In this document: positions 4,710 to 32,638 of the stretch, piece after piece | Layout: every line of letters starts with the position of its first letter | Numbering within the stretch: the first letter of the stretch is position 1 | Program-made: the position numbers and the translations under genes | DNA from: Marsupella aquatica | Taxonomy: Eukaryota; Plantae; Marchantiophyta | Direction of reading: 5' to 3' | Length of the DNA: 64,000 nucleotides | Assembly (NCBI GenBank): GCA_973895155.1 | Contig: OZ316892.1 | Span: 16,296,357 to 16,360,356 of the forward strand | The notes under the pieces: generated by a model | Seen by the model: only the letters and a program-made list of their open reading frames with translations | Database searches by the model: none | What the model was told of the DNA's origin: nothing

Positions 4710-4724
4710 TCCTCCTACAACAAG

Positions 4725-8350: not shown

Positions 8351-9336
8351 ATGTCAGAAAAGACTCCGCAGTCATGGAAAAGGAAAAAATTTGTGCCCTC
8401 TCCAAGTGAACCTACTCAGTCACCAGTCCAACCAAGGGACCTGAATATAGCGCTGCAATCACCAAAATTCCCACCAAAAGGAAGTGTGAATGAGAGAGTG
8501 TCATTAATTCAACAAAACTCACAACTTGGAACATTGGATAATCCCACGCAGAGCCGGCCTTTGTTTGTAAATCTTAGGTCTGGACCAAAACTGGTGGTTC
8601 CCCAAAAGTTTAAAAGAATAAGAGGAGAAAGGAAACGCTCCACAAGCTTGGAAGAGTATCAGCGCACCCCTAGATTTCAGTCCTTAGGAGGAACTCGCTC
8701 TTGGGTAGACGACCAAACAATCCGAGATAGAGATACAGAGGAGGTGCAAATCAAGGACGACTCGGTCAGGGAAAGATTGCTCGCATACAGGGAAGGAACT
8801 ACCCCCCCTAAAAATACGTCAGGACAGGAGTCGCCCTCTACTAATCAAGAAACAATATCAGACTCGCCAAATAGTGTGGATAGTGTTCCTTTTGCAGAGC
8901 TGGGAAGTACCCCTACTTCGGCAAGCGCACACAGTGTATCACCAAGCTCTAACCCGCCAACCACTCCTCCCACATCACCTGGTTCACTACCACCACCAAT
9001 ACCTCACCCTCTCACTCCACCAACAGCCACCGTGGCTGCAGCAGCAGCACCTCCTGTACCTCCGGTAACCCCAGTTAATCCCCCGGCCAGAATGGCAAGG
9101 AATAATATAAGATATGACACTTTTAAGGGGACATCCAAAGAGGATGCAGAAACGTTTCTGAAAGAATTTGAAGCCGCAGCCACATCCAATGGACAGACCC
9201 TAGATGCGGAAAAAGCCACCATTTTTGGTGGTTTGTTAAAGAAAGGAGCTCAAAAGTGGTATGACCGTTTTGCTCATAAACAAGATTGGGGCCTAACTAA
9301 AACAGCCTTCTTGGACAAATATAAAGAGGATGGAGT
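8351..9336 (+). CDS. gag: Gag N-terminal part of element B (interrupted by CACTA)
   Basis: Pro-rich region, then capsid-like FKGTSKEDAETFLKEFE...LKKGAQKWY...W...KTAFLDKY. Joins in frame to 27407 (EDGV-SARAFARIS) when the CACTA and one AGT are removed. Confidence 0.9.
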
Positions 9337-10181
9337 CACTAGAAGAATCCGAGGTGAACTGAGACCGCAATATATGACTCATTTTGGCTCATGTGACTTC
9401 ATTGTGACTTGACCCACGCTGTGACCCTTGGAGTTGCAAAAGTTGAGACCAAAAAATGGAAGTCACTATTGATACTGGGCTTTGCAACTTGCTTGATACC
9501 CATTTGTGACTGATCTGTGACTTTATTGTGGAGTCTAGCCTTGTTTCGACGTGACTGCAATATGACTTCAGCGAGTCACATCGTAAGTCACATACATGAC
9601 TTACCCGCATTCAACAACGACTAGCGTGTGACTATTTAGTGTCACAGGAGAGACCAATGGAGACCCTGGCCCGCGTCACACAACAGAACCATTTGGGACT
9701 CTATATACTCATGTTTATAACTAATAAGGTTCACATGCAAGTTATAACCATGACTAATGAACACAGAGGGACAGTTCATAAGGAGAGAGAGCACTCGACA
9801 TTACAATACATAGAAACCTGATGTTCTAACTTTAGAAATATAACACATTGAATACAAGAAATGAACATAGCATGAATGACATCCACATGAAACAAAGCAT
9901 CATATAAGCAAATCCTACATAAAACATTCATAAGAATTAAACACAATCACAATCTTGCTAAAAAATGAAGATCATTTGAATTCCAATGGAATAGTTTACA
10001 ATGTGATCAATGTAATTTAGACAAAACAGGAACTCATAATTGATGACTGTAGGATGAGATAACTGAAAGCACATGCATGATACTATGAATCTCCAAGAGG
10101 ACATGATTCTTGTACTGCTTCTTGACATCTAAAATCTACATAACATGACTCACACTACAAACAAATAATGGCATGACATTG

Positions 10182-13100
10182 TTATGGATCCTCTATGAAC
10201 TTGCTTGGCCATAATACCAAAGAACCTGCAGCATCTCCAAGTGTCTTTTGAGGAGGATCATCATTTGTGTTTGGAATGGGAAGGACAGCTTTAGGTTTCA
10301 CTAGTAATGTGACTAACACTACTGAATAACCTGGGGGAATCCTCTTGCCATGGAACGTTGTGGAACCAACCTGCACTCTGGCAAATCCTACTCGTGTTCC
10401 ACTCTCATCAACAGCTAACAAGCCACTTTGTCCCTCAGCATTAGGTGCTTTCCCCACTTCCACCTTAGATCTTTCTGCCAGCACTGTTCTTGGAGGTTTG
10501 TATGAAACCTTTGACGTGGCTCTGCTCCCACCAGCAGACTTGCTTCGTGTGCGCATGCTTCCTCTCTTCACAGTAGTGAAGCTAGGCTCAGTAGGTTCCT
10601 CTATTAGGACTGTCACAGTAGCAGGTTCATCACCTGGGAGTGTCATACCAACTAACTCTTTGGTTGGATTTATCTCAACAAGAGGCACACCTGTCATTGA
10701 GAATGATACATTCTGCAAATCATTTATCCCTGCAATGGAGTCAAGATCTACATAGCATGAATCTGGCTCAATGGTATCATTGTCATGCTTGCTGATATCC
10801 TCATTTGCCCCAACATTGATATCATCCACTCCCTTGCCAATGTCATCCTCATCCAAACATGGTTGACTGCCCTCTGTCAAACAAGTTGCTTGTACAGACT
10901 GCAACTTTGTTGCCTCTAAATTACAGCGAGTATTTGCCAGGTTCTCATACTTCTTCTCTGTAGCACCTGTCTTATTCTCTATGGACACAACAACCACAAT
11001 ATATGTTACTGAAAATAACACATTCAACAAACAATGTCAATTCAAACTATACATTTAATAATCATATCCCACACAGTTGTAAAGGCCTTACCTTCAAGCC
11101 TACATGTCGTTGGCATGCCAGAAGAGTGCATCGACTTTGCCACCTCAAGTGGTGATGGTGGAACTCCTGCAGAATTGGAATCAATTTTATCTCTCACCGA
11201 CACAACATCTTCCATTAATGTCTTGAAGTTCACATGGAACAAGTCAGTCAATGAATTCAAACGTTCATTGATCTCTGGAAGACATGTTTCGACAGCCTTC
11301 AAACGACCACTTATCTCTGTAAGTGAAGATCCACCTCCCTACATGACACAGGGGTATAGGTTCAATCACTCCATATGAAATGTTGGGCAATATATGCACA
11401 ATCAATGTTATATACAGTGTACACCTGAAATTCAACGCAGGTCATTCAATTACCAATCAGAACTCATATAACTTACATGCTTGGAGGATTCAGATGCACC
11501 CTCTTGAGCCCGGGTGTTCACAATTTCAGCCCTCAACTCTTCTTTTGAAGGGCTTTGCCCCAATTGGGCTTTCTGCACATGCATGGCAAACACAAGTTAT
11601 CGATCAATATTCAGGGAACGTACACTAAAAAACAAAGTTTACATGTATGGGTTTACACTAAAAAACAGTACATAGTGTAGCATAAATTACATAGCTAGGC
11701 CATTCATTCTTACCAAACGTTTAGCTGTCGGTGCAGTGCCGGTCCTTCCTGTCAGATTAGGGTTCTGAACACTCAACCTGGCCTCGGTCATCTGTGAACT
11801 CTTCTTTTTTGAAGCATCTGTTACAAAATAAGCTACTAACCTTGCCCACACTTTATCATCACAACTGGCTGGTGGAGGCATATCTGGCTTCTCCCCACCT
11901 TCCTTCCAAGCCTTATGCATTCTCCACCTCTCTTGCTTGATAATTTTACCTGCTGTACTCTCTAGGCAACCTATGTCCACGCCATCATCACTGCCCACAT
12001 AATTCCATTTGGCAGCAACATTTTCACATACAGTCTTCCAATCTTTTGGATGCTGTTTTTTAAAATTAATAACACTCACATCTAACCAACGCAATACTTC
12101 AGCTTTCAAATCAGCATGCCATCGGTTCTTGCGAGGACACTCAGCATCCACCCATTGTCTCTCATTCAACTTTATGTTCCCTTTCTTTGTCACCTCCCCT
12201 CGTGCACTGCTCTCGGTAGTACTGGGCGTTGTATTGGCCACCCCTTCATTCACCCTACCTGGGGTTCTGAAGCCACCTGGGAAAATACAATGCCATTCAT
12301 GCTTGAGAACTACATATAGCAGAATGGATGACGGCAACATTCAATGCTTCACTTCAAGAAAAATTCTTCAAACATACATACCTGTAGCTCTGCCTGTAGA
12401 TGCCTGTGCAGGGACTGCACTCTGAAATTGTTGCGACCCTGGACCACCTGTCCAGCCTAGTACAGGGGCCGGATGATGTCACTTTCTAGGTATGTGTGTG
12501 CAAACATATGTACTGAAAACTAAGTACAAACTGTAGGAAAACAACTGAACATTCACCGACATACCTGTCCCCCTTCCGTGCTGCATCTGCATAGGGGCAT
12601 TAGTGAATACTTGAGTCGATGGTTCGACTGTCCAACCTGCACACATACATTTTCTATCATTATACATGTGCAGAGTCCCCCCCATGTGAATGGACTCCAC
12701 ATATAATGAGTTCTTCCATTGCTGACAAGATCAGACATTACCTGCTCCTCTTCCAGCGTTTGTAGGTACTGAATTTTGATATCCCTGCCAATTACCTTCA
12801 CCACCTTCCCAACCTTGTTCATTCCACGACCCACCACCATCCTCCCAACCTGGTTCAACCCATGTCTGTCCTTGTGGACATTGGAACTGATCATTACTAG
12901 CATTTGCCCAATCAGGTTGGGCAGAATCTGCATGCAATGGCAGGTGGACAGAATTTCATGTTGTCTGAATCCAATACATCCCAAACAATGTCAAAAATTG
13001 ATATGCAGTCTGAAATTCAGGAGTGCCATGCCTTCACAAAGAACTGGCATATAGATATATACTCACATCCCCATGGTTGAGGTGGACGTCCATACCCACG

Positions 13101-13971
13101 AGATTGTGGGTTTGGACCTGCTCTGCCTCTACCACGGGCATAACCTAGAGCTTGCCCCCTGCCATAGTATTGGGCACCAGCCTGGGATCTACCACTACTA
13201 CCACCTCGCCAACCTTGATCAGAGGTCAGCCCCCCCTGCTGGTATGGTGCATGCACAGGCTTCGAAGGCAAAACAGAACTGGCAGGACGCTGCATCACAT
13301 CACCAACTACAATGTCAGGAACTAAGCAAGGTACATATGTGTAGTACTGAACATATGAAACCTCTAAACAAGAGTTTTTAACTCAAAACCTTGTTGGGAA
13401 AACTACTTACATGTTTCTTTTGGGGCTGCTCTGCAATGTATTCATCTTCATAACCCCCATCCTCATCCATTTCCTCTGGAAAATACTCATCATCTGCATC
13501 TTCTTGTCTAGTGTCTGCACCCATCTGTACAGCATCAATGTCATCTCCACATTCTGCCATTGTAGGTACGACCTTCTTGCTCAACCTGTCACTCCGACGC
13601 ACAGGCCCAGAGATAGTGTTGGTCACCCTTCTTGCGTACTCCTTTTGTTTCTTTGAAAGTGCTGTGGCCTGCGACATTCCAATATGAGAATACAGTCACA
13701 ATTTCAGTGCCACATTGAACTATTCATGTCACACAAACTCAGCGGAGGGGTGTAGTTGAGAATCGTTCCCTTACAATTCAGCCACATCCTTTTCCAGATC
13801 CAGTTCTACGATTTTGGCTTTCACGTATGCTCGTTGTTCCATAGCTTTCCTTTCATACTCACACATCTCTGTGTCACTCTGTTCCATCCTACTGGACCAC
13901 AAAAACATGTCATCTATGGTCACCCCGTATAACACAATGCAACCACAATCACCAGGCATCCATCCATACAT
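10182..13971 (-). CDS. CACTA TNPA/TNP1-like second gene, multi-exon (exon boundaries approximate)
   Basis: Series of minus-strand ORFs separated by intron-like gaps. 11687-12340 resembles Ptta/En-Spm (WARLVAYF...KKKSSQMTEAR...TGRTG). 10182-10400 has the C-terminal motif FHGKRIPPGYSVV...LPIP...TLGDAAGSLVLWP. Confidence 0.7.
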
Positions 13972-14043
13972 CTGTGTTGCTTCAGAATTACTTTATTACA
14001 CATCCTTCCCCTCACTAATGTCCATGCAAACAATTCACATTAC

Positions 14044-17000
14044 TCATGGCACAGGCACACTGTTGGCATCTGCATCTCTGAATTCGCCTCCTTCAGCAAA
14101 TGCATCTACCCTTGTCACAGGAATGAAGTCCCCGCTATCATGAACTACAGGCACTTGGTCTGATCGCCGACGATCAAAGGCACTATGAGAGTGTAAATGA
14201 AACTCAAGGTTTGATCCTTCCATCTGACGTTGCCTGGCCTGTTTATGACACACTACACGCCAACCTGGGGAGTCTTCCACATCCAGGAAGAAAGCTTGCT
14301 CCACCTGACTAGGAAACACAAATGGCTCAGACCATTCGGGCAATTTCCCTCTGAAATTGGCCAGCAAGAAACCGTCGTTGTCTCTCTTCATGGTAGCCCT
14401 GTTACCAAGCCAATCCTGCCGCACCCATGAACCTTTCATAAGAATCACAGGACTGGACACCGCCCCATAGTCCAGAGCCCATATGTCAACTAATTCTCCC
14501 ACATATCCCATCTCCATCCAGGCCCTGTCGTGATTGTGGCTCTGTTGCTCAAATACAGTGATGAGCCCGCAGTCATTCGTCACCCTGTAGGCACTGTCAC
14601 CATCCTTCACTCGGAAGTGATTCCCATATGCTCTCATCCGTTTGTAAGTCTTCACTTTCAGGCTAGGGGCATTAGACAGTAGGTAAACATCTGCATCCAT
14701 GTTTGGGTGGGTCTCGTGATGCTCTCTAATTGCCACTCTGATCCACTCCATGAAACCTGGAAAAGTTGTTCCTGCAGTGGGATGGGCCGCCTTCAATGAC
14801 TCATACTCCCTGAACGAACAACCACACAGCATTAGCTTGGGTAAACATGAACAGGCTGAAGGAGAAAACCACACGAACACAACATTTAAGCTCATGAACT
14901 AGATTATAGCACATGTATGCACTCACTGTATCTAGGGTTCCATCACCACAGTGTTGTGCAATACAAAGTCATGTGCCAAGTCTCTCATAGATATGGTCAG
15001 GTTCTTTGTGGTTGCAGCCCCTTCCAGTACTTCACCTATCACCCCTTCCTCCTCATCAGAATTCCACACCCTGGTCTTCACATGCTCATATTGTGCTATG
15101 TATTCGGTCAGAAATCCCAGAGTCTCATCCTTGATGTAACCTTTAGCCATGCTTGCTTCAGGTTTGTAATATGTTCTCACGTGACCTTTGAGTAGCTTCA
15201 TGTACCGTTCCAAAGGGTACAACCAACAAGCACTCACAGGCCCAAATTGGTGTAGCTCTTCCACAACATGGACAAGTAGGTGGGTCATGACATCAAAAAA
15301 TGCGGGAGGAAAATAAATCTCCAGGTCACACAGCACCTGAGCGACATCTTCTGTCAGTTGTGGGAAGTGTGTTTCATCCCAAACCTTCACACAAATACGA
15401 CGAAACACATCACTGAGTCGCATGATCACAGTACGAACAGGCTTCTGCAACAGGCTCCTCAGGCATAAAGGCAACACCTGTTGCATCAACATATGGTAGT
15501 CATGGCTTTTCATACTACCAAGCTTTCTAGTCATGATATGCTTCTTGAAAGCACTGCCATAGTTTGAAGGAACCTTCAAAGAACTCAACCTCTGCACAAA
15601 TAGTTCCCACTCTGTGTCTGTCAGAACATAGGGCGCTTGGTACTTCAAGAGCACATCAGCTCTGTGGGCATGTGGCCTCAACCAAAGATGGGGTTTCATT
15701 CCCCTCTGTTCAAGATCCAATCTCACTGAACCAGTGTCTTTCTCTCCACACAAGAATCTGAGTAGACTCTCACAAATATTCTTTTCAATGTGCATAACAT
15801 CAATGTTATGTTTGCTTGGCTCAAACTCCTGCATCGTTGCAATGCAAAAGCGTCAGGAAATGCCTCAAGTTTAGTCTCTCTCTTCGAAATGAATGCACAT
15901 GCTCTGAACCAAAACATGTATCCCAATTAGCATCAACTCCAAGAGGCTTACCCTCCAGTACTTGAGCTCCAAGTCCAATATGCTCAGTCTTTTTACACCA
16001 TATCGCTTTATTGGATCACTCACTCCATCTTCCCTGCCCCCTCGTTTGATATAGTCATCCCTCAGTGCTCCCCACTGCCTGATCTCCTCTTTGGTCACTC
16101 GTGTCGGGGGTCCACGTTGCTCAATCTCATTGCCAAAGTGTGCAATCAGTGCCTGTCTTTCTCTGTAAGGGTGATCTGCCTTCAGAAAACGACGATGGCC
16201 CATGTATATCACTTTCTGCAGGGCTCTAGAGTACTCACTGGTGACATTGCACCCACAGATAGTACAAGCATAATATCCTTTTGTTGTTTGGCCTGATATC
16301 ATCCCATGGGCTGGGTAGTCAGCTATAGTCAGAATGACAATGGCTCTAAGGATGAATGGGTTTAACCTCCCAAGCCTCTGTAGGACATCATATGTGAGAA
16401 CTCCTTCCTCCCAAAGCTTTCTCAATTCCTCCACTAGGGGAGCCAGAAACACATCTATGTTGGCAGATACAGCACTGTCTGGCCCTGGTATCAGTAGGAC
16501 CATCAGAACAAAAAATCGCTTTGTAGTCATCCAAGGAGGAAGGTTATAATTCAAAATAGTTACAGGCCAGCACGAAAATTTGTTGTTCTTGTCTCCAAAT
16601 GGGTTTACCCCATCCAATGACAGCCCAAGTCTGACATTCCTCGGCTTAGCAGCAAATTCGGGATACATCTCATCTATGAGTTTCCATTGCCTTGAATCTG
16701 CAGCATGTCGTTGTAGCCCATCATCACTTTTCTTGTCAGTTGCCCAAGTCATCATCTCCGAGATGGCACGGCTTCTGAACATCCGCTGAAGTCTGGGAAT
16801 GAGTGGAAAATGACGAAGTACCTTGGCGGGAACCATAGACTTTCCTGAGTTCCGATACCTGTGCTTCCCACACTTAGGGCATGTCAACGATTCTTTATAC
16901 TCCTTTCTGAAAAGAACATGCCCATCAGGACAGGCATGGATCGAATCATAGTTCAATCCAAGATTAGATATGCATCTTTTTGCCTCGTACATGTTCTTGG

Positions 17001-17634
17001 GCAAAATATTACCATCTGGTAGCACAGTTGTTCGCAAGAATGCCAACAACTCAGAAACCAAAATGTTGGGGACATTGTGGTTGCCGCAAATGTTCAGGAA
17101 CATGATGACAAATCCCAGTTTAGAACATTTGCTACCGGGGTACAAAGACTTCCTGCCTTCCTGTATTTGCAGGGGAGAGCCAAACATCCCATCATGCCCA
17201 GGGGTTTCCTGCCCTATCTCAAACTCATCAAGAGGCTCTTCGACAGGGGGCACACTTGCATCTGCAGCCGTATCCTCTTCATTGTCCAGCCCATCATGAA
17301 ATGCATCCAAGTCTTGGAAGATGTCTCTCACCATCTCTTCCACATGAATTCCTTCGTCACGTGGTGCTGCCTGAGCACCATCCCGTTGGAGAGCTGACAA
17401 CCCACAGAGACCAGCTACAACATTTTCAAATGCACCAGGCAGAACCTCACTTGCCCGTCTTGCAGCATTGGCAGCATCAAATTCTAACCTCCACTCCTCG
17501 TCGGAAGAATCTTCCTCTGCAGGATCATTCCAAACTCGATGTCGTGGATCTCTTCCATGAACCGCGATATGCCGCCAAACCTCATTCAGACCCCTGGTAC
17601 GGGATCCTTGGCAGATTGCACAAGGACATCTCAT
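14044..17634 (-). CDS. CACTA TNP2/TnpD transposase (Transposase_21, DUF4218, DUF4216 regions), spliced, with one probable premature stop
   Basis: Motifs MRCPC..C, IHACPDGH, RNVRLGLSLDGVNPF, YNLPPW, DYPA, HNIDVMHIEKN, KSHDYH, FFDVMTHL, WLYPLERYM and EPFVFPSQVEQAFF. TAG at 14932-14934 sits just before a GTGAGT donor. Confidence 0.93.
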
Positions 17635-18208
17635 CCTACTGGCTCCTTAAAGTCTGGTTCGTAACCTTTCACGCTGCCAAAGCTTATTATCATGGCGTGA
17701 TATCCTTGTGGGATGATGCAAAGGCAGTGCCTGTGCCCTGGGCTGGGTCTGGGGAGGGTGGTGACCAGGGTGCATTGTAACAGGCTGGGAGCTCTGCAGT
17801 CATGGACAGCAGTGAACAAGGATGCCTAATGGTGGTATTTGTGTTCCATATATCCCTGATTGTATCTGCCAAAAGAGTTAACATAACGTGTACTAAATTC
17901 TCACAAACCCTAAACCACCCCAAAAGAAAAAAACAGGTTCGCAAGTAGTGTACCTATTGTCAAGTGAATGACACAAAATTCCTAAATGTTGGAGGGTGTC
18001 ACCACCTCCTCCGCTGTCCTCAAATGTACCGCCTCTGCATGTACGTTTATAGTGACACCCCCAGGCAGCAGGAAACAACAATCCGCCAACAGTAAAATAA
18101 GCCCAACTGCCACCAACCATAACAAGGTACATTAGTTCAAAGATCACATTTATTTCAATGATCTGATTTATACAAAAAAACTTGTGTCCAAACTGATGCT
18201 ACTACTCC

Positions 18209-19081
18209 TCACTCTGATTCAGAATCGCTAATGACCCATTCCTCACTTGTTGTCTCATAGTCCTCTCTGTAAGGATCCTGACCCTTCCGTGGCCAGGCCT
18301 CAAAAAGATCATAGTCCATTGGGTTTTGACGCTTCCCAGCTGCTACTGATTCCACAAGCCAAGCATATGAAACCACAAACACATTATGGGACATGACATA
18401 AAAGCGAATGTCTCCCTTCCCAAACTTGCGGCAGGCTTTGGGATATGACTTAGTAATGACATGAGTGGTGTCCTCTGTTATATTCTCCTCCACTGTCCCA
18501 CCTAGGTCAAGCACTGTGGACTTGTACACTTTGCACTTAACCTCTCCAATTCCCGCCTCCACAAATACCATGCTCAGCCCTTTCAGAATGGGGGTTGGTT
18601 GCTTCGTCTCCTCAGCCAACATACACTTCAGCCTTGTAGAGCTCTGTCCTTTGTTGAGTACAGGTCCATATTGGAGATCAGCAAGCCGTGCCTTTGCTTC
18701 CCAGACTTCTTGTTCAACCCAAGCTGATGCAGAAGCTTCTTCATCCTCCCACAACTCATATTGCTCAGTATCCTGTACAATCTTATGTGCTATGGAATCT
18801 GTGATCCAAGAGGCCTCAACTACTTTTAGGCCTTGCTTAGTAATTGCAGAATTCATGTAGGACCATGACCACTTCTTTATCACTGATAGCCATGTCCCTG
18901 CAACAACATGTGTAGTCTCTGGAGTGATGTCCTGAACTACAGTGCCATGGAGCTCAGAGAATCATTTCTGTACAGTTGGCCAATGCACTTTGGTCAACCC
19001 ATGCTGGCCATGGACCAAAATCGCTCTGACCCCTGTAAACACTGCTGGGTGGTCACACTTTCTACGTTTACCAGGCTCCAT
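18209..19081 (-). pseudogene. Tandem BRCT-domain gene (Pol-lambda-type BRCT) inside the CACTA, one in-frame stop
   Basis: Manual translation from ATG 19081 gives MEPGKRRK..VFTGVRAILV..QK*FSELHGTVVQDITPETTHVV..VVEASWITDS. A second repeat follows: ILKGLSMVFV..LGGTVEENITEDTTHVI..VVSYAWLVESV. The TGA is at 18962-18964. Confidence 0.8.
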
Positions 19082-19673
19082 GTACACACACTCTACGTGA
19101 TGATAGTGAATTTTGGAAGAATGGGTTCACCTGACAATACAAGGACAACAAAATTCCTGCTTTTTGAGTTGATCTGGCCCACTGGTGCTCAGGTCCGATT
19201 TTGATAGGTACAAGGGATATGTGAACAATACGTACTAGGCACCTGCACGGATGCAGGACATTGTTTGAATATATACTACAAAATCCATATCCGTGGTGAA
19301 ATGAAGTGCAACCAACTTGTCATGGCACATACATATTTTGTTGTAAAGGAGGATACATTCAATGACAAACTTATAGGGCAATTTGATTAATTGCATGCCT
19401 GATAATTTATACGCTTACAACTTAGAAGTCCTGTTTTAATTTAGCAGTCTGATGAAAGTGTTTATGAAAATGACCACTCAGCCTAAATACTTCCAAGAAG
19501 GCTTGTAAGGATAAGTTTGTATAGGCATGTACCCAGCCACTGACGCCAGAGCACAAGATAAGTGCTGCCTATATAAACTCGCCTACCCAACTCCTTTTCA
19601 AAATTGGAATCTCTGCAATCTCAAAAAATAGTACATCCACATCAGGTGCACTGTGCATGTACAATGTTCAGCT

Positions 19674-20354
19674 TCACAGCCAAGATATGTGATCTCTCAC
19701 AGGAGTGCGCGAGGTAGGATCAATGGCATGGCGATGACAATAAAATATCCATCGATCAACACCATGTGCAGAGTGATCATAGATTTCTCTGTCACAAGCA
19801 TAACCCTCTGCTTGATGATCTTTCAGGCAATGATAGTGCCACATAGTGGGACACCTAGCACAGTGGACTATGTCAGTCCAGTAGTCATCATCATGCTCAC
19901 CACATGCCTTGCACCTATGAAGTGGGCAAGCTGTGGCATGAGCAGGAAAACACTCAAAACAGAAAAATCTCACACAAAAACGGTCTGGACATTTCCTAAC
20001 ATTTGCTGCAGCATCAACAGAGCCCTCATAGGACCCCAACTTCCCACACTGTGCACACTTAGCCTGCTTCTCCAAACAATCAGTGCACATCCAGTCTCCC
20101 TGGTGTGTTGACGGGAGGCCCACCCCTGGACAGTTGTTTTCTGCAGCAAGGTCAGACTCCGGGTTGAGGTGGAAATGCCTCATGCAAGGGCCCTCACAAA
20201 TGACCAGGCCCCCACCATCGTCACAAATGGCACAACAATGAGCTGCCTTCTGGAAAATCTGACTTGCAGAGAAGTTAGTAGCATCTACCCCAAGTACACC
20301 TGTGTTTCTCACCTTTGTCACACGCTTTTTGGCTTGAATTTTAGGCCGTGCCAT
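19674..20354 (-). CDS. EDM2-like PHD-finger cluster protein (reader module only) inside the CACTA
   Basis: Motifs CAICDDGG..CEGPCMRHFH, C..C...KC..CGKLGS, CPLHRC..C, C.RCP..WH..CL and IFYC.RH.ID....TPVRDHI. These match the EDM2 PHD region as I recall it (CAICDNGG..CEG.CLRSFH...LIYC.EHEID..L.TPVRDHV). Confidence 0.85.
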   Translation of the reverse strand: MARPKIQAKKRVTKVRNTGVLGVDATNFSASQIFQKAAHCCAICDDGGGLVICEGPCMRHFHLNPESDLAAENNCPGVGLPSTHQGDWMCTDCLEKQAKCAQCGKLGSYEGSVDAAANVRKCPDRFCVRFFCFECFPAHATACPLHRCKACGEHDDDYWTDIVHCARCPTMWHYHCLKDHQAEGYACDREIYDHSAHGVDRWIFYCHRHAIDPTSRTPVRDHISWL

Positions 20355-22511
20355 GCCTGCGCATGAGATAGACTCTACAATTTAGCAGACTGCATAGAAA
20401 GTAAAATATATTTAGCATTTAAGGTACAAAGGCATTTGCTACTGCAATGAATTGGAATGGCCCACACAAGGATGCAGAGCACACATACTTTTGGTATGTT
20501 GAGCCCACACACAAAACTGATCCCCTAATACAATTTCTCCACCAACACCTCAATTTTAATTGTGGCTATGATTCACCAAAGGAGATCTGCAACAACATTT
20601 CATGCATTTGAATCACATACAATAGTCGTGACATGTAAAACAGGCATTCTTCGAAGAGGATTGGTATGAAGCAGTGTCATAAGGGTTGAAATTTATACAT
20701 CCTAAATAGGTTATGATAGTGGCTGAGACAAATAAGTGAGGCATAAATCATTTTGCATATTATCACATGGCCCATTAATTCATTCAACGTTGCAATGTTC
20801 ACCAGGTTAAAGCAGTCATGAAAGCAGTCTTTCAATAGAGACTTTTATGCGAGTTTGCTAGCCTCTTAAATTAGGATATTTTGCTTAGTGCAGGCATAAT
20901 AGGATATAAGTTATGTACTGTTGACCCTAAACCCTGGACCCAAAATTGCTCATACATCAAAATTTTAAGTAAATATCCTCTGTGTTGAAGTGAGAGTGTT
21001 AAGCTATAGGTCAATGGTATCTGGTCTGTGCATGCGGTGTGACAAGTGGTCCTCTAGAGCATGTGATCCAAACATGTGTAGACACCAAAGTCACCGGTGG
21101 TGGGGTCTGGGAGGGCAGGACAAGTGACATCACCAGGCACACTGCAGGATGGCGAGTGGTTCCAGATGATACATTGTGCTCTGTGCAAAAATCGGCATCC
21201 AAGAGAACGGTCATCCAATTCTGGGCCAGAAGCCCTACAGGCAGGACAGTCATATTGGCAACTGTGTACACACCCTTGGCACCTAATTTGTGGCGGGTCA
21301 TGTACAAGAGACACAAATACCAAGGATGTCGGGAAGGGTACTGAAGCAGGTAGAGGCCGGCTGTAGTTGTTCCTGGAAACAACAGGGTACTCAAAGTACC
21401 ATGCAGACTGGGCTGGAAGGATCCCAAGTCTGACATACTCAAGGCGCAACATCTCTGCCTTGCGTGCAAGTCGCACATGTTCAGCGTTGTGGGTCCTCAC
21501 CATAAGTGTTGCTTTCGTTGTGATGTCCTCTGTTCACGTCCTTTGATGAGCAAGGTGAGCAGGAGGTCGACTTGCCTCGCCAACAGCAACCACCTAAACT
21601 AATCAGTTCCCACTCATTGTCTTGGTTCCAACTACAGGTCATAGTATACACATAGCATGAAACGTGCATAGTACATATTTGATTCTGAGTTTATGAGTTT
21701 CCTAAGACAAAGAGCTTGGTGATAAACCCATATTCTCGACGGACATGTATATCAATCATATTAAACTCCTGTTTTTTCATCCAGAAAGACCGAAAGTCTC
21801 ACCTTGCAGGTTGCAGCAGAGAGAAAATTCACTGGTTGTCGTGTTGTGCAAGTGAACCTCCACTGATGCCCCGGTGTAGCCCCTCAGATGCAGGTGACAC
21901 TTACCAACTCCCAAGTTGCCTGGTCTAACAGAAAATGCTTATATCTTCAGAACTTTATAGAGCAAGTACATGATCACATACTTCTGGATCTATTCATATT
22001 TGGAACTCTTGCCAACTACAACTCCCATTATGCACAAGCTCACATCAACAGAGAAAGATACAGAATGCATACTTACTATGGCTCTAAGCACCTTCACTAC
22101 CTTGTTGAACCCAGTCCTGAAGTCTTTTCAGCGTGTTTGTTGTGCTGTCTCCTTTGGCACCCAACACCTTAGTCCTTGATGTAACAGAATGCGATTTTAC
22201 AAGTTAGATGCTTTGGAACCTTCTATGGTCTTAGCTGAATTGATGTCATCGTAAGTGGTGAAAGACAAGGAAGATGAAAGCTGGTTGAAGAGCTGTGGAC
22301 AACACACTAGCATGAAGTGCTTCAACCAATCCACTGCCAAACGGAACTCTTACACAGTCACATTCTTTTAGTAAACAAAAACTCAGTCAAACTTCAGAAT
22401 CAAAGTACAGACTCTGAAGGACCAAAGGAGGATGTTGTGAGTTTCTCTGTTGTTTAATGTGTTACCCTTCTAGTTTCGAAGTTAGCAAATGCTGAATAAT
22501 GTGTCTACCAG

Positions 22512-22854
22512 ATCTTCGAAAAGAAGCCCACCACAATTAAGAACTTCGGTATCTGGGTCCACGTATCAGAGTCGTACAGGTTATCACAACATGTACAAGG
22601 AATATTGTGATACCACAAGAAACGGAGCTGCAGAGCAGATGTATGATGAGATGGCTTCTTGTCATAGAGTTCGGTTCCCTTGCATCCAGATCATGAAGAC
22701 TACGACAGTCCCTGTCTCTCTGTGCAAGCGAGAAAGTACCAAGCAGTTCCATGATTCAAAGATCAAGTTCCCCTTGACGTACTGCAAGATTCAACCTCCA
22801 TTGCGAAAGCTAAAGAAGACTTACAAGGCCACCAAGCCCAACACAATTGTTTGA
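22512..22854 (+). pseudogene. RPL18A: Captured last exon of 60S ribosomal protein L18a (eL20), frameshifted
   Basis: After a CAG acceptor the sequence reads [15 protein letters not shown], then a frameshift, then [38 protein letters not shown]...[12 protein letters not shown]...[10 protein letters not shown]. Confidence 0.92.
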
Positions 22855-25800
22855 GTAGTGCGGGTGCAGGTTCCCAATTTTGAGACAATTTGGCTCATTT
22901 TATGTCCCGAGGGAATCCTGGAGTTTATGTATTGAGTTTCTAGGTGAAGATGCTTAATATAAGGAAATTCAATTATCACTTCGTTCCCAACTTCTATTAA
23001 TTGAAAATACACAAGCTGGAAGCAAGAAGACAAGCCACAATCTAGCATCTTAGCCAAACACAATCGTCCCGACAAAGCAAAACTCAGCTGGACAGAAGTC
23101 ACTCGGATCCACAAAAAATTGAAGATTCACCTCCAAGCCGGAGGCTGATCACTTCAGTACAGCAACTTCTAGAGGGAACAAACTCTGCTCAGCCCCACAG
23201 AAACACAAATGTTAAGGCTCCAAGTCAGAGCTCACAAACAAAAACTCAGATAAATAACATTCAAAATCTGTCCAGGTTTGTGCAAAGTGTACATATTCAT
23301 TCTTCTGGAATGAACACGCAATGCATACATCACCTAGACACAGTCATTATAAATCATTGGGCGATTGGGGACCACTAAGCAGGTGTGTTCCTATTTCGAG
23401 GCTACAGGAAAGGATAGAGTGACACCAAACTCAAGAGTACACCAAAAGAAAAACAGCAAGAACCAAAGTCAATCATGTGTGGATAAACTGCACATGGGAA
23501 GTTCCCCTGAAGAAGCATCAGTTGCTAACATTGTCACCCGAACCACACCTAGTTTATGACCTCAATGTCTTCAGCCTCAATATCCAATCCTCAGCCCCCT
23601 GGTGCTTCCGTGTTTGTTCTGAAAATTTCTGTGATGAAATAATTATTCAATACATTCAATAGGAGTTCAGACAATCTGAAGAGGACTTTGGACTTGAATG
23701 GGGGACAGCGTGGCCATATAGTTATCCTTGTGGCCTTCAGCTACGTGTCTCACGCTGAATTTCACTTTCCAGTTTCGAGAGTTGTGAAGGTCTAGTTTTA
23801 GTAACTTCCTCCTGACTCGACTTGGGAGCATTCTCTGTATTTGCTAGCTTGTAGTTAGCTTTGACTCCTTTCAGCTTAGTTGACGACCCTCTTGAGATAT
23901 TAACAATTAATATCAAAGGCATTGAAACAAAGCGGGTGGCAGTTTCAGTATCTCAGGCAATGCAAAATTAATCCATACTTAATCAGCCCTGGCCACACAT
24001 TCCTTCAAAGCCCCTCATACTAGCAAGCAGGTCTGGCCTGTGAATCTTGTAGTGCTTAACGATACAAAGCCTTCCCAAGTACCAATTCAAAAGTAGCAGA
24101 AATAGATCGAAAGCTAGTTCCGATGATAGCTCCCAAAAGCTTTCCTCAGCCCGATTCCTATGCACATCAGAGGAGCTCAAACCATTTAGAAATGAGATCA
24201 CAGATTACTCTTGACAATCTCAAAAATGCCACAACCTAAGCACTGACAGCTCCGTCCCCCCATTCTAATTTCTCCGACAAGTTTGCCTTAAAGCACATCC
24301 ACTCGCAGTTCAAGCAGATTCAGAATCATCATAGACAATAGAGTGTTCTACCATAGCCCACGGTAGGTCCACGGCCATCGTAACAAACGCTCCACCCCCG
24401 GGGCTTATTAGTATTGCTCACTTTTAAGAAGGGCAGTTTTCGCAAAAGCAGTCTAATTGCCTAGACTGCACTAGAAAAGTTGGAGGCAATATCACAGCGG
24501 AGCATTCTGTGTCTAAGGGAGAGCGACGCCGTTCAGGAGATAGATGCGCGAGAGAGTGAAGGTGGTGGGGAGCGAAAGACGGGTTGGGACTGGACCCTTG
24601 GTGCCGGTGGGTAATATGTGGGGTTTCAATGAACAATGGGCCAGTTTGAGGAGGATTAAGAAGCGCGCACCCCACGTTCTTGTGTGGTGGTTGGGTGGGG
24701 TTTTGTTTGATAGAAGAAGAAATCACCATTCTCTTATGGAAGAAAGAAAATCGCAGGAAACAGTGGGCAGGAGAACAAGGCATGTAATAGAGAACAACGA
24801 GGCATGTAATAGAGTACTTGCGGTTACTCTAACGGTGCACGAACACTCACCTTTGTCTTCCGCTTTGTCTGCTGTGGCCAACAAATCCCAGAGCGCTGCC
24901 GAGCTTGGTGGTTGCTTGATGGTTGAAAGTGCGTAGCTCACGTCCCTACCTCAATGTCCAACTCAATGTGGGATGCAGCAGCTTCTCTTGGTCGCATCTC
25001 CTCTTCGTCGCATCTCCTCTTGGTTGCATCTCCTCCTTGTCGCAGCTCCTCTTGGGGTTCACAGCTAGCGCGCAGCAGCGCTCGATGGTTGACAATGCGC
25101 AGCTGAGCTAGGAGAAGAACTGAATGACTGTGGCTGCTCTTCTCTGCAGTCCAAGCACCCGGCTGGCAGAATGCTACGACACCTGAAAGAAGCGCACTTT
25201 CAGCTGCATGGCCGGGACTAGTAGAAACCGTTGACGGTGAAGGGCATTCTCGGTTTGGACCTCCTCTCTCCAACCCTTCTAACCCGCACCTCCAAAGTTG
25301 ATTCGGGAGTTGATTAGCAATAACGTCGCTCCTATGCCAAAGGCACCAAGAACCAAGCCAAAAGAAAGGGTTTAGCAAAGGGAGAGCGATGTAGTGTGCA
25401 CTGATCAATGACTCAAAGTTGACGTCGAACCCTCCATTGCGCTAGCTATTGGCGATTGCCACACAGAGAGCAGCCGTATGTAGCAAACTGTAATGCAGAT
25501 ACTCCCGTCAAAGGTCGATGCGTCACACTCAGCTTTAGAGGAAGGATAAACGATTGAGCAGCATTGCATTGTGCAAAAATGTTGGAGAAGCACATTGCTT
25601 CCAGGCCCGAGCTCACCTCCTTCCCCTTTCACCACTTCGCAGCTCCTCCAAGAGACATTCACTCAAGGGCACATCACGCAGTTGCTTGCCCTCCTCAGAA
25701 GCTCAACACCACAGCCACCAAAGTTGTCAGCTCCCACTGCAACTGAACAGGTCACTACCAAAAGCCCGCTCCCACCGCAGCTGAACAAGTGAGCGACACA

Positions 25801-27406
25801 AGAGTGTAGGACCTCCGCCAAGCCCAGGGCAGCAGCTCAATGAAACTCAATTTGCAACTCGTCTCACTCTCGCTCTTGCTGCAAAGAAAAAAAAGCGCAG
25901 GTCAAACTCCTTTGTGGCCTCAGTCCCCACCGCTTTCCCCAAGCTATGGACAACTACTAGCAGCTTGCGCTCACAGCATGACATCCAGGTCTTTAGCCAA
26001 CTGCACACTGGAAACCGAGAGAAGTGAGCGCAGTCACGCAAGGCCAAAAAAGACCAAAGTTGAGCCAAAGCAAAACTTTACTAATGTATTTATAGTCAAG
26101 CATGAGGGCAATCAGGTAAGCAGAAGACCACGCATTCCCGCAAAGAGTTGTAGGTTCTCGTCACTTCCTCGCCTCTGTATAGAAGGTCGATCGTTGTATC
26201 TCGGGTACCCAATGATAGTGGAGATGAATGCAAATAGGCCTCACCAATCGCCAGTCATCCGCGATAACCCTCCCGACAACCTTTGTAAACTCTGGACCCA
26301 GCCTCAACCTCACTCAGCACAGTAGCAAAACCTAGCAATGTCACCGCTGCAATGTTTTGTGCTTGCAATAAGCAGCCTCCTAAACCCACAGCTCCTTCCA
26401 CTGCCAACAAAATGCCAATGACTCAACCCTCATTCCAACCCCGAGCTCCCAATAGTAGCGAGAATCCAAGCCTTTGACTGCAAGCGCACAGCGGAGACAA
26501 GACACTCAAAGAAGCTCGATAGGATTCACTCAGGAAACCTAGGGCCCAAGCCTGACGATGTTCGGCTCTTCCTTCTCGCTCGCCAAATGCCGACACTCTG
26601 TGCGCGCGAAGGCACTCGTCGTTTCTCCCAAGGGTTTTGGCACAAGGGGTTTGGGAAAAACAGTCAATGGGCAAAGGCATTACCATGTAACACGTGGAAA
26701 CTTGTGGCATGGTCCATTAGGTGAAGGGGTTCATGAAGCCAATTGAGGGCAACACGCATTACAAGGAAGAGTAGGTAGAAGTGGTCTTGCGGCAAAGGCA
26801 TTGCATTGTACCCTTAACAAAAAGAGTCCCTAATATTGGGCTGTTCAATATTCCTAGATGAAGGGAGTTGCAACCATTTGAAATTGGCCAAGGGGTATAT
26901 TTGGAGACAGAATGCTGCCAAATGATGTTAGTGGGTTCAGTGTGTGTCTTTCTCTTTGTATGATGGAGTAACCAGTGGCCTGCATCATGGCGCGCGACTT
27001 GCAATTGCACCGACCTCCGGTACATATACCTATAATCATTTTGTCAATCATACATATAAAGTATATATGTATGGGTTGGATTTGGGATGTGGGTCGGCAT
27101 TATTATTTAATAAGAGCCAAAGTTATATTGTTCTTATATATGTGCAACCATGGTGATAAATATGGCAGAAAGCGCTATTATAATTGTGCTGAGTCACTTA
27201 TAAAACTTCAAAATAATTGCCTACACTAAGTTACAATTGCAACACTCCAAATAGTTATAGATATGACTCTCCAAAAATTCACCAAAACTTAGTTGAGAAG
27301 GTGTAACAAAGATGACACCAATAACCTTGGAGTCACTAATTTCCAAAGGTCTCAAGTAAGTCATGTAAGGGAGGGTCTCAGATAGGGCCGGTTTCTTCTA
27401 GTGAGT

Positions 27407-29714
27407 GTCAGCACGAGCCTTTGCACGGATTTCTAGCTTGTCCATGAAAAAGCATGGGTCGGTGAGAAAGTATGCTGATAGGTTACTAGACTTGGTTGAC
27501 AAGTACAACCCAAACACAGCCAAGTCTACTCAACGAGATTGGTTCATCAATGGGTTACCTTCTCGAATTGCTCACTACGTTAGAAGGGAAGGTGGCACTA
27601 CATTCGAAGAAGCCCAGGAAGCAGCCCAGAAATATGTAGATTCTGAGGTATCCGAAAAGAAGCGTGTAACGAAGGATCTGCGGAGAAATAAAAAGAAGGA
27701 TAGGAAGAAAAGGAAGAAGAGTAAATCTTCATTCAGTTCGGAGTCTGACGAGAGCGGAACTTCCAGTTCGGGTGAGACAAGTGAAGACTCGGGATCGAGT
27801 AGTACCACCAGCTCAAGTTCGAGTTTAGAGGATTTGAAAGGAAAAGGCAAAAGGGTGCAAAAGCCAAAGGTACCACAGAAAGCAAAGCAGCTTGACAAAA
27901 TAACGGACAACCTAACAAGCAAACTAAATAAACTATCAGTTAATGCGGCTATACTTAAACTACCGCGTAAACCCCCTCCTACAATCCGCAATAATGTGTG
28001 GTGCCCCAGATGTAACAATCAGGGACACTATCACCATGAGTGCCCCACTTTACAGAGAGCAGTAAACTACGGGGAAGAGGAGCAAACTTATGACTATGGG
28101 GATGTTTATGCGGTACCAGCCCCATTTTCTGGACAATATTTTCCTTCACCAACTGCTCCACCTCCCTATGCAGTACCAAAAACACCAGCACTAACTGCCT
28201 ATAATAGACCTGTTCCAAGACCACCAATGGGACCACCTGGTGGGTATCCACCTAGAGGAGCACCTCGGGAGAGAGGCACCTATTACAATTGTGGACAGAC
28301 TGGACATTATTCTCTTGAGTGCCCCTATCCCAAGAGAGAAGTGGGGTATACCCCTATTTGTGGAAATTGTGGGAAGGATGGACACTTACCAGTTGAATGC
28401 CCAAGCCCCCCTAAACCAAAAATGATAGTTAGATTTGCAAAAGAGCCCGTGAAAGAAGTCTCCAGAGCAGAGGACCTCAGAATGGTGTACACACAACAAG
28501 ATGAAGATCAATGCGGACGAATTACAGTGGAATCGGACGCAGATGACCTCCACAAAGTACACAATGTTTTCTCCCAATCATTAAGTGGAATTATTCCAGA
28601 TGTGGAACTACATGACTTGGTGCAAGATGAGGTTGTAGGTATGCCTCACAAGCGAGTCCAGGAAAGGGATAAAATTTTGGATATTTTTGCAACTACCCGT
28701 TCCAAAACTTCACACAAAACTTCAGCACACAAGGGTAAGGAGGAGACGAGAAGCAAAGACCTTAAGAAGCATAAAAAGCCTAGAGTACCAGCGGAAGAAG
28801 GAATCCCAAAGGAGAGTGATCCAGCATATGATAGGTACGACCCTAAATATTTCCAACCTGACATCTCCAATGAGATCCGCAACCAGATCCAAGACATAAC
28901 AGAAAAACTAGACCAGTACAAGGAACTAACATCTACCCTAGGGGCGGAAAAAAATAATATATCCGCATCTCAGAACGCTACAATGCCAAAACCAAAGGGG
29001 TATGACATTGTAGAGGTAGTCAAAAACCACCCAGCGAATATCACTGTGGGGGACTTATTGCAAGAAAACCCGGTGTATAGAAAGCAGCTAAAACTACTTC
29101 TTACCGGCAACAAGAGGAGAAAGAGACTACCTTCGGCTCAAGCCTTCCGTTTGGAATGGGAAGACAAGGGACCACCTGAAATAGAAGTGCAAATTTCAGG
29201 ATGCGTGTTAACTGATGTACCAGTGGATGGTGGGTCCAGCGTTAACATCATTACAGAGGATGCAGCATTTAAAATTGGGATAATCCAGTTTGAAAAGACC
29301 CTTCAGATCCTCCGAATGGCAGATCAGTCTAGAGTGGTACCTGTGGGTAAACTCACTCAAGTACCAACAGTCATTGGGGGACTAACCTTTCCATTAGACT
29401 ATGTAGTACTTCGACCAACAGGGCAGTCTACTTATCCAGTATTATTGGGTAGGCCGTGGCTGTATAAGGCCAAAGTCAAGGTAGACTGGGAGCGCAGACA
29501 GATGACTTTTGGGAAACCAAGAGTGACAATTAATTGGGCAGTGGACCCTCACCAAGGAGAAACCCAGACAGATACTGGGTACACCTCAGATTTTTCTGAC
29601 TCTTCCCTACAGGTAGAAGAGAGGGATTTTAACGTTGTTGATGTAGGATACCTGGACGAGGAAGAACCTGAGAGTGCCCCTTTCACTCAGGTTGACCACC
29701 ACGGATTGCTCTGA
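27407..29714 (+). CDS. gag: Gag C-terminal part with three CCHC knuckles plus aspartic protease of element B
   Basis: Knuckles CPRCNNQGHYHHEC, YYNCGQTGHYSLEC (first C lost) and CGNCGKDGHLPVEC. Protease motifs VDGGSSVNII and VLLGRPWL. Confidence 0.92.
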
Positions 29715-32622
29715 CGCCAGGAGAAGGAGGCCCAAGTGACGGGTCTGCCCGATGAACAGGAGAATTATCCCTGGCATTCCGTGGGCCAGGAACGTAAGGA
29801 AGGAATTGTAGACCCCCGTCAATGCCAGAAAATTGAAGTGGAACCAGGAAAGTTCATTAATATTAGCAACCACATCCAGGGAGAACTAAAGGAGAAGTAT
29901 ATCCAACTGCTGACTCAATACAAAGATGTCTTCGCATGGAGCCACCAGGACCTCAAAGGAATACCATCCCACCTAGGTGAGCACCGCATAGACTTGATTG
30001 AGGGAGCGGTCCCAGTACGGCAAAAGCAATACCGTTTAAACCCGAAGTATTCCAGCATGGTGAAGGATGAGTTAGATAAGCTTACAGCGGTTGGCTTCAT
30101 TTACCCTATCCTTAATAGTGATTGGGTCTCGCCCATTGTCATTGTACCAAAGAAAACAGGACCAGATGGGAAACCAAAAATCCGAGTGTGCCAGGACTTC
30201 CGGAAACTTAATGCTGCTACTAGGAAAGATCACTACCCTTTGCCCTTCATTGACATAATTCTAGACTCAGTGGTTTTGCATGAATTATACAGCTTCCTGG
30301 ATGGATATTCCGGCTATAATCAGGTTTCCATAAGGAGGGAGGATCAGGATAAAACTACTTTTACTACGGATTGGGGTACTTATGCCTTCAGAGTCATGCC
30401 ATTTGGACTATGCAATGCCCCTGGCACATTTCAGCGGATCATGATGATAATTTTCCAGGATTTTTTGAGAAAATTCTTGGAGATTTTTCTTGATGACTTC
30501 TGCGTATATGGATCATCCTTAGACCACCTGCAGCATTTAGAGCTCACCTTCCAGAGATGTCGTACCTCTCAACTTTGCCTTCACCCGGAAAAATGCTACA
30601 TTGGTATGAGAGAAGGAATCTTGTTGGGGCATGTCATATCTCAGAGAGGTATAGAAGTGGACGCAGAAAAGGTAAGGATCATTATGGCACTTACACCTCC
30701 TACCAACTTGAAAACACTTAGAGGATTTCTTGGCTACGTGGGTTACTATCGCAGGTTCATTCACAAATATGCGGATTTAGCTATGCCCTTAACCCACCTA
30801 CTGAAGAAAAACCAGGAGTACCAATGGACCTCGGAAAGGCAGCAAGCATTTGAGGTACTCAGGAATTATTTAACCAATGCTCCAGTTCTACAACCCCCAA
30901 ACTGGAATAAACCCTTCCATGTATATATTGATGCATCTGCATACTGTGTCGGGGCGGTGTTGAGCCAATTAGATGAAAATAAGAAAGATCACCCGATCTA
31001 TTACGCCAGCCGACAAATGAATAGTGCGGAAAAAAATTACTCCGTCACAGAACGAGAAGCCCTAGCTGTAGTCTTTTCTTGTAAAAAATTCCGACACTAC
31101 TTGCTAGGATATAAGACCATTTTTCATACGGACCACTCTTCCCTAAAATACTTGGTGAATCAGCCCGACTTAAGCGGAAGAATTGCTCGTTGGGTACTAC
31201 TTTTGCAAGAGTATGACTATGAGGTGCAGGTCAGACCAGGGAAACACCATGATAATGCAGACTTCTTATCTAGGTTGGAAGGACCTGAAAATGCAGAGGT
31301 ATTGTCTGACCAGTTTCCGGATGAACATCTATGGCACTTGGAGGGGGAAGAGTCTCAATATGCAGATATTGTACGAATGTTGACGGATGGCAGTTACCCC
31401 CCAGACCTAAATGCGGAAGAAAAGGCAGTGTTCCTTCATAAAGTAGGACCTTATACTCTGATCCGTGGCAACTTGTTTAAACTACTTCCTAACTAGAGAC
31501 TTCATCGGTGTTTGGAGGCAAGAGAAACCAATCAAGCCATTGCTGCGCTACACACCGAAACTGCAGGAGGGCACTATGCGGTTAACACTACAGTTCAAAA
31601 GATCAAAGATGCGGGATATTGGTGGCCCACAATGCACCGAGACACTTACAGATATATTCAGAGCTGTGACCCATGCCAGCGAGTGGGGAAACCCACAACT
31701 ACTTCTAAATGGCCACTCACTCCCATCTTACCACTCTCACCCTTCGAAAAATGGGGTATAGATTTCATTGGACCCATATCGCCTGCAGCAAGGAACAGTC
31801 GCAGCAGATACATTATCTTAGCCACGGATTATATGACAAAATGGGTCGAGGCTAAGCATACACGACGGAATGACGCTGCCACAGCTGCTAGCTTCCTATT
31901 TGAAAATATTATCACTCGTTATGGTTGCCCACTGGAGTTGGTAAGTGATAGAGGGTTACATTTTTTGAACACTACTATTGAACTCATCACTAGTAAGTAT
32001 TTGATTAAACATCGCAAATCCACTCCTTATAACCCAAGAGCTAATGGACTTACTGAACGTGCTAATGGAATAATGGGAAAGATACTCAACAAAATGGTTG
32101 AGGCACACAAAACGGATTGGGACTTGAAACTTCCATCTGCGCTGTGGGCCTACAGAACAGCTGAGAAGATCACCACTCTTCACACTCCCTTTTATATGGC
32201 ATTTGGTTTTAACAGTGTCACTCCCATTGAATTTGAAATCCCCACCGAGAGAATTGTTTCCCCACAAAGAACTATAGAACCTGAGAGTTTTTCTGCCCGC
32301 TTGGAAACCCTGGATATGTTGGAAGAGCACCGGTTGCTGGCTTTAGAGCAAACCCATCACCAACAAGAGAAAAGGAAGCTCCAATATGATAAGAAGCTAA
32401 AGACACCCACTTTACAGGAAGGAGATCTGGTCTTAGTATATGATTCAAGGTACATGTTCTTTCCTGGAAAACTACATACTCATTGGATTGGACCTTACAC
32501 AGTAAAGAAAGTATGGCCTAACGGATCCCTGACATTGCATACCCTAAGTGGAGACTCTGGACACGCGCATTAATGGCTTCCGAGTTAAGAAGTATTATCT
32601 TCCACCACCTGATGGCTTGTGA
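29715..32622 (+). pseudogene. pol: Pol of element B: RT, RNase H, integrase (in-frame stops at 29712 and 31494; frameshift near 32560)
   Basis: RT: DFRKLN, LDGYSGYNQ, MPFGLCNAP, FLDD. RNase H: DASAY, YYASR, EREAL, TDH. Integrase: H..GGHY, CDPCQ, WGIDFIG, SDRG, NGLTER, WIGPY. Confidence 0.95.
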
Positions 32623-32638
32623 GGATACGGCGCCGTTT

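Follow-up and report, generated by a model that had tools for sequence, protein, structure and literature searches.

A complete CACTA (En/Spm) transposon in the liverwort Marsupella aquatica carries a stand-alone gene for three PHD fingers of the EDM2 type. This gene is confirmed, is conserved and belongs to the transposon; its type is that of EDM2, although it is not a full member of the EDM2 family. In our best explanation, it is kept under purifying selection in a multi-copy CACTA family, and its product would be a histone-tail-binding adaptor through which the transposase proteins of the element reach heterochromatin. We give the adaptor a probability of about 0.42, which makes the reading a tentative one. 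The window (i.e., the whole stretch of 64,000 nucleotides that was analyzed) contains the following features.

2258..36636, plus strand: Gypsy LTR retrotransposon (LTRs 2258-6218 and 32652-36636), its gag hit by the CACTA element
9337..27403, minus strand: complete CACTA (En/Spm) element of 18,067 bp, all protein genes on the minus strand
10182..13695, minus strand: TnpA-type gene, spliced, with exon-like ORFs (Transposase_24 E 1.5e-4, under the cut-off)
14044..17866, minus strand: TnpD-type transposase gene, spliced (Transposase_21 E 4e-70, DUF4218, DUF4216)
18209..19081, minus strand: tandem-BRCT cargo gene, intronless, with a basic N-terminus (Pfam BRCT E 1.9e-13, two stretches)
19674..20354, minus strand: stand-alone EDM2-type triple-PHD gene, 226 aa, coding sequence without introns, basic N-terminus
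20357..20358, minus strand: splice-acceptor-like AG by sequence context, 2 nt ahead of the PHD ATG
21054..21503, minus strand: open Cys/His-rich ORF of 149 codons, from its translation a second possible cargo gene
22486..22854, plus strand: captured piece of ribosomal protein L18a, now decayed (Pfam Ribosomal_L18A E 3.4e-18)

The preliminary description had placed the PHD gene in a CACTA transposon, and this location stands on terminal inverted repeats (TIRs), an AGT target-site duplication (TSD), transposase domains and a reconstructed open gag frame. The TIRs at 9337 and 27403 begin CACTAGAAGAA... and agree in 14 of their first 15 bases. The 3-bp TSD AGT is present at both ends, and excising the element in silico joins the flanks into one open gag frame. 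GTGACT-type subterminal repeats are also found, most of them near the left end. The element therefore has what characterizes the CACTA superfamily, namely CACTA-type TIRs, a 3-bp TSD, and genes of the TnpD (Transposase_21) and TnpA types; the Pfam domains inside it are Transposase_21, DUF4218, DUF4216 and Transposase_24. In minus-strand order, it holds the L18a fragment (itself on the plus strand), the Cys-rich ORF, the PHD gene, the tandem-BRCT gene, TnpD and TnpA. The insertion is recent, because the LTRs of the interrupted Gypsy element are 98.8% identical. This sole target site known lies within a Gypsy element, in a window made up of TEs. The Gypsy LTRs are unusually long (~4 kb), and each has an ORF of ~700 codons without a Pfam match, with a stop in the second.

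The PHD ORF is intact in this copy, whereas the TnpD and BRCT genes each hold one stop. The TnpD stop at 14932-14934 is premature, and contigs from all four runs compared differ in the base (variant row 14933); the stop in the BRCT gene is in frame at codon 40. The BRCT gene has weak matches to BRCA1-BRCT in the PDB (E 0.006) and may encode a transposon-borne DNA-repair adaptor. The Cys/His-rich ORF yielded no match in Pfam and no usable match in the Atlas; the depth summed over its bin is high in both X2 and X3, two of the runs, and such sums are not taken as copy number. Across the genes of the element, CpG observed/expected ratios of 0.21-0.40 suggest methylation. The C-terminal exon of the TnpA-type gene (10182-10500, minus strand), for which Pfam found no match, presumably resembles the small beta-barrel domain of TnpA. 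Such TnpA domains are restricted to flowering plants according to PMC13547354, and a beta-barrel-like TnpA exon in a bryophyte host would contradict this range. Another large element resembling a DNA transposon lies at ~38298-51339, with DUF7869 ORFs, a 26-bp perfect inverted match near its ends and 27-bp tandem arrays in inverted orientation. It also contains an ORF matching an N6/N4 DNA methyltransferase (E 2.4e-6, SAM-binding motif only) beside a NIF-type, CTD-phosphatase-like phosphatase ORF.

The PHD ORF runs on the minus strand from the ATG at 20354 to the TGA at 19674, giving 226 codons without a stop or a frameshift. It is thus the compact, open and intronless ORF of 226 aa first described, and its N-terminus is basic as claimed, with seven K/R and no D/E in residues 1-20. 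The same description had the protein consist only of a PHD cluster and stop right after TPVRDHI. Pfam detects three NSD/EDM2-type PHD models in sequence, each under its curated cut-off, and no PWWP or SET domain. DNMT1-RFD was matched neither in this protein (P0001) nor in its compact relatives, the nine matches among the 54 scanned proteins all being in long proteins. The methyltransferase-like ELP domain is missing from the C-terminus, which reads TPVRDHISWL and stops four residues past DH, i.e., three residues later than described. The protein has all 24 zinc ligands, distributed across three zinc-finger units.

Unit 1: C41-C44-C53-C57-H62-C75-C90-C93
Unit 2: C100-C103-C122-C127-C132-C135-C143-H146
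Unit 3: C148-C151-C165-C168-H173-C176-C206-H209

With at most one exception per ligand column, every family row of the alignment (11-12 rows) has Cys/His at these positions. The AlphaFold model of the protein is moderate (mean pLDDT 68.7) and weak at finger 1, where residues 39-48 fall below 50. Foldseek searches with this model returned generic PZP/PHD and PHD-C5HCH folds with low TM-scores, the PHDV-C5HCH tandem of NSD1 among them (E 0.02-0.05). Sequence searches of the PDB matched NSD and AIRE alone and no EDM2 chain. To call the protein a histone reader is to infer a function that goes beyond its sequence.

The AG just ahead of the start codon is likely the end of a 5' UTR intron, and its position 2 nt before the ATG makes an upstream exon in the PHD mRNA probable. 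Such an exon would probably be non-coding, because relatives at 37% identity share the MARPK start at the same place. More generally, relatives at 37-43% identity open with MARPK or MARTK at equal spacing to finger 1 and finish with DHISW[LI]. The possibility that the PHD ORF is the last coding exon of a longer protein was considered less likely, since relatives share the MARPK start; a search for longer proteins retained only three among 2,498 candidates, one resembling EDM2 and two being NSD proteins, which speaks weakly against this model. A TATA-like TATATAAA is located at 19570-19577 on the plus strand, ~100 bp beyond the PHD stop and directed antisense into the ORF.

The PHD protein belongs to a compact family. 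Five of 69 candidates were compact relatives (217-245 aa, 37-81% identical to it), and the seven matches with E <=1e-30 among 244 representatives were all 166-245 aa long, with long EDM2-like proteins ranking next. The compact relatives form a single clade in every tree (support 100/99 and 100/100), on a long stem of 0.87-1.7 changes per column. The relatives examined come from Logan, ENA or JGI contigs. Many of them are truncated or frameshifted, as expected for copies of any transposon gene. A scan of metagenomes yielded one locus among 147 stretches (L001, 1,867 bp, too short to reveal a transposase), with a stop upstream of finger 1. Two further proteins, a PHD-only relative of 43% identity (P0012) and a Transposase_21 protein (P0210), were each traced to an ENA contig with a length of exactly 13,432 bp. 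This is probably the same contig, from which we infer linkage of the PHD gene and the transposase outside this copy.

Parts of the region are contained in ten runs from eight studies, and four of the ten, represented by contigs, were used in each of the comparisons of the element and of the ORF. The whole element is covered in 30 of 30 bins in all four runs. In run X3, 1,228 contigs align to the 681-bp PHD ORF at 80-100% likeness. Diverged pieces in runs X5 and X6 stack on TnpD and on those stretches of the PHD ORF that are conserved; these runs were chosen via the PHD region, and the pile-up is only a hint. The same two runs, which bear two further organism labels, present low-depth pieces of ~99% identity across 9200-27550, reflecting either sharing between species or mixed samples.

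The variants in these contigs show that the PHD gene is constrained. No indels at a share of at least 10% were found in the PHD ORF among the run contigs, and such indels were listed in the flanks. Based on 40 of the 86 variant rows of the ORF, 15 variants were silent against an expectation of 21-27% (P 0.012-0.088 depending on the transition weight), and pN/pS was 0.44-0.61; this excess of silent variants is modest and the test crude. We then considered conserved columns, defined as those kept in at least five of seven distant relatives (77 of 226 columns). Only one of the 21 codons with amino-acid changes falls in these columns, compared to seven of the 12 codons with silent changes only (Fisher P 0.0012). 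The lone exception, F136L, restores the Leu of the family, and the departure belongs to this copy. An apparent stop at E134 among the variants was rejected, because it falls in a codon of which one contig has changed all three bases.

Several results place the family with EDM2 rather than with NSD proteins. EDM2-like proteins score up to 144 bits with the family profile and NSD-like proteins 37-86 bits, and none of the ten family members has an NSD protein as its best BLAST match. In the tree, the family and EDM2 are split from NSD-like proteins (99/94), and a grouping with animal NSD proteins is rejected (p 0.040). Against Arabidopsis EDM2 (P0163, named ENHANCED DOWNY MILDEW 2), BLASTP aligns the PHD protein at 30% identity over 211 columns, corresponding to EDM2 residues 225-432 (E 3e-27). 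Arabidopsis EDM2 and the PHD protein have in common the three-finger cluster, i.e., the atypical EDM2-type PHD cluster of two and a half fingers, with finger 2 modified in the latter. EDM2 and the transposon family also share a long H-x12-C loop in finger 1, a C-terminal YCxxH...TPxxDH[IV] motif, and later fingers that end in a C4HC2H-type pattern (as given in PMC3776765). NSD1/2/3 match the same Pfam models and have a short finger 2 like that of the transposon protein, but their PHD clusters lack the finger-1 loop and are combined with SET and PWWP, both missing here.

Arabidopsis EDM2 has 1,297 aa, whereas the transposon-encoded protein has 226 aa and lacks the RFD, acidic tract, ELP and proline-rich region of EDM2 (domain list from PMC7529245). 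Its finger 2 is ~20 residues shorter than that of EDM2 and the fifth ligand is changed from His to Cys. The preliminary description had called for a comparison with host EDM2. The nearest host relatives appear to be short liverwort paralogs and not the studied Arabidopsis protein. These paralogs include Calypogeia fissa CAM6087769.1/CAM6093230.1, Marchantia Mp1g03210 and Mp4g03050, and Riccia R1sor_003797, and the Marchantia genes, like the others, were not named in the literature searched. Several short EDM2-like host paralogs of bryophytes end at or near the PHD cluster (P0047, P0015, P0029 and P0022); of these, Mp4g03050 (P0047, 280 aa) is a PHD-only host protein of Marchantia.

The short liverwort paralogs are the best host match for eight of the ten family members, and no close host protein is found among the long host matches (244 representatives). 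Five of the eight paralogs listed end, like the transposon protein, no more than ~7 residues from the DH motif. The Calypogeia pair also has the F[ST]xxEVN...P motif that precedes finger 1 in the family, and has it in register (z ~4.5 within a set of 130 host-type proteins, a post hoc value). However, the paralogs retain the finger-2 insertion and the His ligand, and most have long N-terminal parts. One quick tree unites the family clade with the short liverwort paralogs (87) and three other trees do not, so we do not claim the donor as demonstrated. Two of these three are mixture-model trees, and in two of the three the family branches off before any of the host EDM2 proteins, possibly an effect of long-branch pull. 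The AU test rejects angiosperm EDM2 as the sister group of the family (p 0.003); it does not reject the short liverwort paralogs in this position (p 0.375), nor do the trees establish them there. The most likely donor of the PHD module would thus be a short liverwort EDM2 paralog, a point that the trees do not resolve. Taken alone, the same affinities would make the host a probable bryophyte, with a liverwort as the likeliest case.

In canonical PHD fingers, acidic residues right before the first Cys read unmodified K4. The acidic run found at this place in EDM2 is replaced by QKAAH or QCSPH in the transposon family, whose members have 0-2 D/E in the 12 residues before finger 1 compared to 3-7 in long host EDM2 proteins. 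Finger 1 retains, across the family, a GGxLxxC strand and an acidic residue (Asp/Glu) after the third Cys; these features align to AIRE PHD1 and we take them to be H3-binding features. Since the H3-pairing strand is kept while the acidic run and RFD/ELP are lost, binding of H3 tails with changed specificity, without an EDM2-like effector function, would be expected. H3K9me2 is among the marks that EDM2 fingers reportedly bind (review PMC7472560), and EDM2 with ASI1 and AIPP1 favours distal polyadenylation of host genes (PMC7472560 and PMC7529245).

The preliminary description had cited the H3K9 methylation reading of EDM2 and its pathway with ASI1/AIPP1, and had proposed a TE-borne reader or decoy that could counter silencing or guide targeting. 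With RFD and ELP gone, the acidic patch replaced and finger 2 altered, neither H3K9me2 reading nor an ASI1/AIPP1-like action is to be assumed for the transposon protein, and the step from EDM2 to this protein is not supported. The same description would have been undermined by a gene present in this copy alone and evolving neutrally, or by one nearer to NSD than to EDM2. What we found is a compact, multi-copy family with constrained variants, which is closer to EDM2 by profile bits, BLAST, trees and the rejection at p 0.040. Neither objection therefore holds, and the broader idea of a transposon-borne chromatin factor is supported, while the carry-over of EDM2's H3K9me reading is not.

The module would go back to an old capture. 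Its source may have been a short EDM2 paralog of a bryophyte, with a liverwort as the likeliest, and the captured piece was probably free of introns, having come either through RNA or as a single large exon. The basic N-terminus may direct nuclear import, and finger 1 could bind the H3 N-terminus with a specificity shifted from that of EDM2. A partnership with TnpA or TnpD would make the benefit private to this CACTA family, whether this benefit lies in picking TE-rich target sites or in access to silenced donor copies. Such a partnership is what we would expect, since selection best maintains a trans-acting gene that lacks a DNA-binding domain when only its own family profits from it.

Family conservation, the zinc ligands, the constraint on variants, the H3-type features of finger 1 and the target site inside a Gypsy element all favour the adaptor, as do the precedents of VANC from MAIN and of a TnpA domain from NDX (PMC13547354). 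The replacement of the acidic residues ahead of the first Cys weakens it, and so do the modest result of the crude silent-excess test and the low quality of the model at finger 1. In addition, a single target site is too few to establish a preference, and TE-dense sites are also those at which insertions survive. Alternatively, the bare module might act as an anti-silencing decoy, occupying H3K9me nucleosomes or titrating EDM2-like partners and thereby weakening the silencing of the element. The retention of the binding module alone fits a decoy, and the effect of EDM2 on transposon H3K9me2/CHG and transcripts can go either way, with Mu1 being repressed and COPIA4 favoured (PMC3632883); VANC, an anti-silencing factor, has a host silencing protein as its presumed origin (PMC13547354). 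However, a decoy without a DNA-recognition domain would profit all transposons and should be only weakly selected in one family, and a mimic would be expected to preserve the H3-facing residues, which are unlike those of the host. We consider a decoy unlikely, although it ranks ahead of the other rivals. It is less likely again that the fingers bind a host or element protein (e.g., the BRCT or Cys-rich product) and read no marks at all. PHD clusters need not bind H3, as indicated by the PHDV-C5HCH tandem of NSD1, a fold match of our model that binds Nizp1 but H3 only weakly (PMC4838375), and by VEL PHDs, which do not bind H3 at all (PMC9640981); the loss of the acidic patch and the remodelling of finger 2 point the same way. 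Against such a role stand the retention, in finger 1 across the family, of the H3-pairing strand and of the Asp/Glu that follows its third Cys, and the marks reported to be bound by EDM2 fingers (PMC7472560).

Two further explanations have lower probabilities. An EDM2-like read-through factor would promote distal polyadenylation so that transcripts started upstream reach TnpD and TnpA through methylated DNA, as the ASI1-AIPP1-EDM2 complex does on host genes (PMC7472560). The cargo genes, TnpD and TnpA do follow each other on one strand with acceptor-like sites ahead of genes, and the CpG ratios of 0.21-0.40 suggest that these genes are methylated. Nevertheless, the PHD cluster alone is left of such a factor, the RNA-binding, RFD and ELP parts being missing, and TnpD and TnpA are separate genes in some Arabidopsis En/Spm families according to PMC13547354; we regard this role as improbable. 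Finally, the gene might be neutral cargo, a captured fragment of the Pack-CACTA type that is open by chance, similar to the L18a piece. A decayed host fragment does sit in the same element, and many relatives are truncated or frameshifted, L001 with its stop before finger 1 included. However, start, end and all ligands are kept down to 37% identity on a clade with a long stem, and variants steer clear of conserved positions, which makes neutral cargo unlikely. A Pack-CACTA capture is a recent, near-identical and unconstrained host fragment; here, no close host protein was found and constraint is evident. Neutral cargo is thus already largely refuted and has by far the lowest probability of the readings considered.

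Transposon co-option of host chromatin proteins is already known, but an EDM2-type cluster as a separate CACTA gene appears to be new: the literature searched, which does not extend to most subscription journals or to Repbase, describes no CACTA element with a PHD gene, be it of EDM2 type or another. How cut-and-paste elements persist and choose their targets in H3K9-methylated plant genomes is poorly known beyond VANDAL and Spm, and an element-owned, EDM2-derived gene is a small and easily expressed candidate for the reading of histone marks by a DNA transposon. The protein also offers a minimal natural EDM2-type module for structural study, and the finding draws attention to the unstudied short EDM2 paralogs of bryophytes. 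One could further imagine that a bryophyte CACTA clade long ago took the histone-reading module of EDM2, a host factor for transcription through heterochromatin, and turned it into a small reader of its own, which together with a captured BRCT repair adaptor lets it target, and stay active in, H3K9-methylated chromatin. This would be the equivalent, in a DNA transposon, of VANC and of the chromovirus chromodomain; we find this wider scenario rather doubtful, and it is less probable than the adaptor itself.

The system also resembles other cases of host chromatin modules in transposons, namely VANC, the NDX-B domain of TnpA, the chromovirus chromodomain and the PHD of Rehavkus. VANC binds DNA sequence-specifically, and the chromodomain of chromoviruses is a module of host chromatin proteins that the element has taken over. 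According to PMC13547354, MAIN is the presumed origin of VANC, and NDX that of a TnpA domain (NDX-B, En/Spm); the transposases of Rehavkus contain PHD (PMC6446971). In Rehavkus, an animal MULE-like element, the PHD is fused to the transposase, whereas the gene described here is a separate CACTA gene with an EDM2-type cluster. In our best reading, the PHD protein would be analogous to VANC and to chromovirus chromodomains as a chromatin-binding adaptor owned by the transposon.
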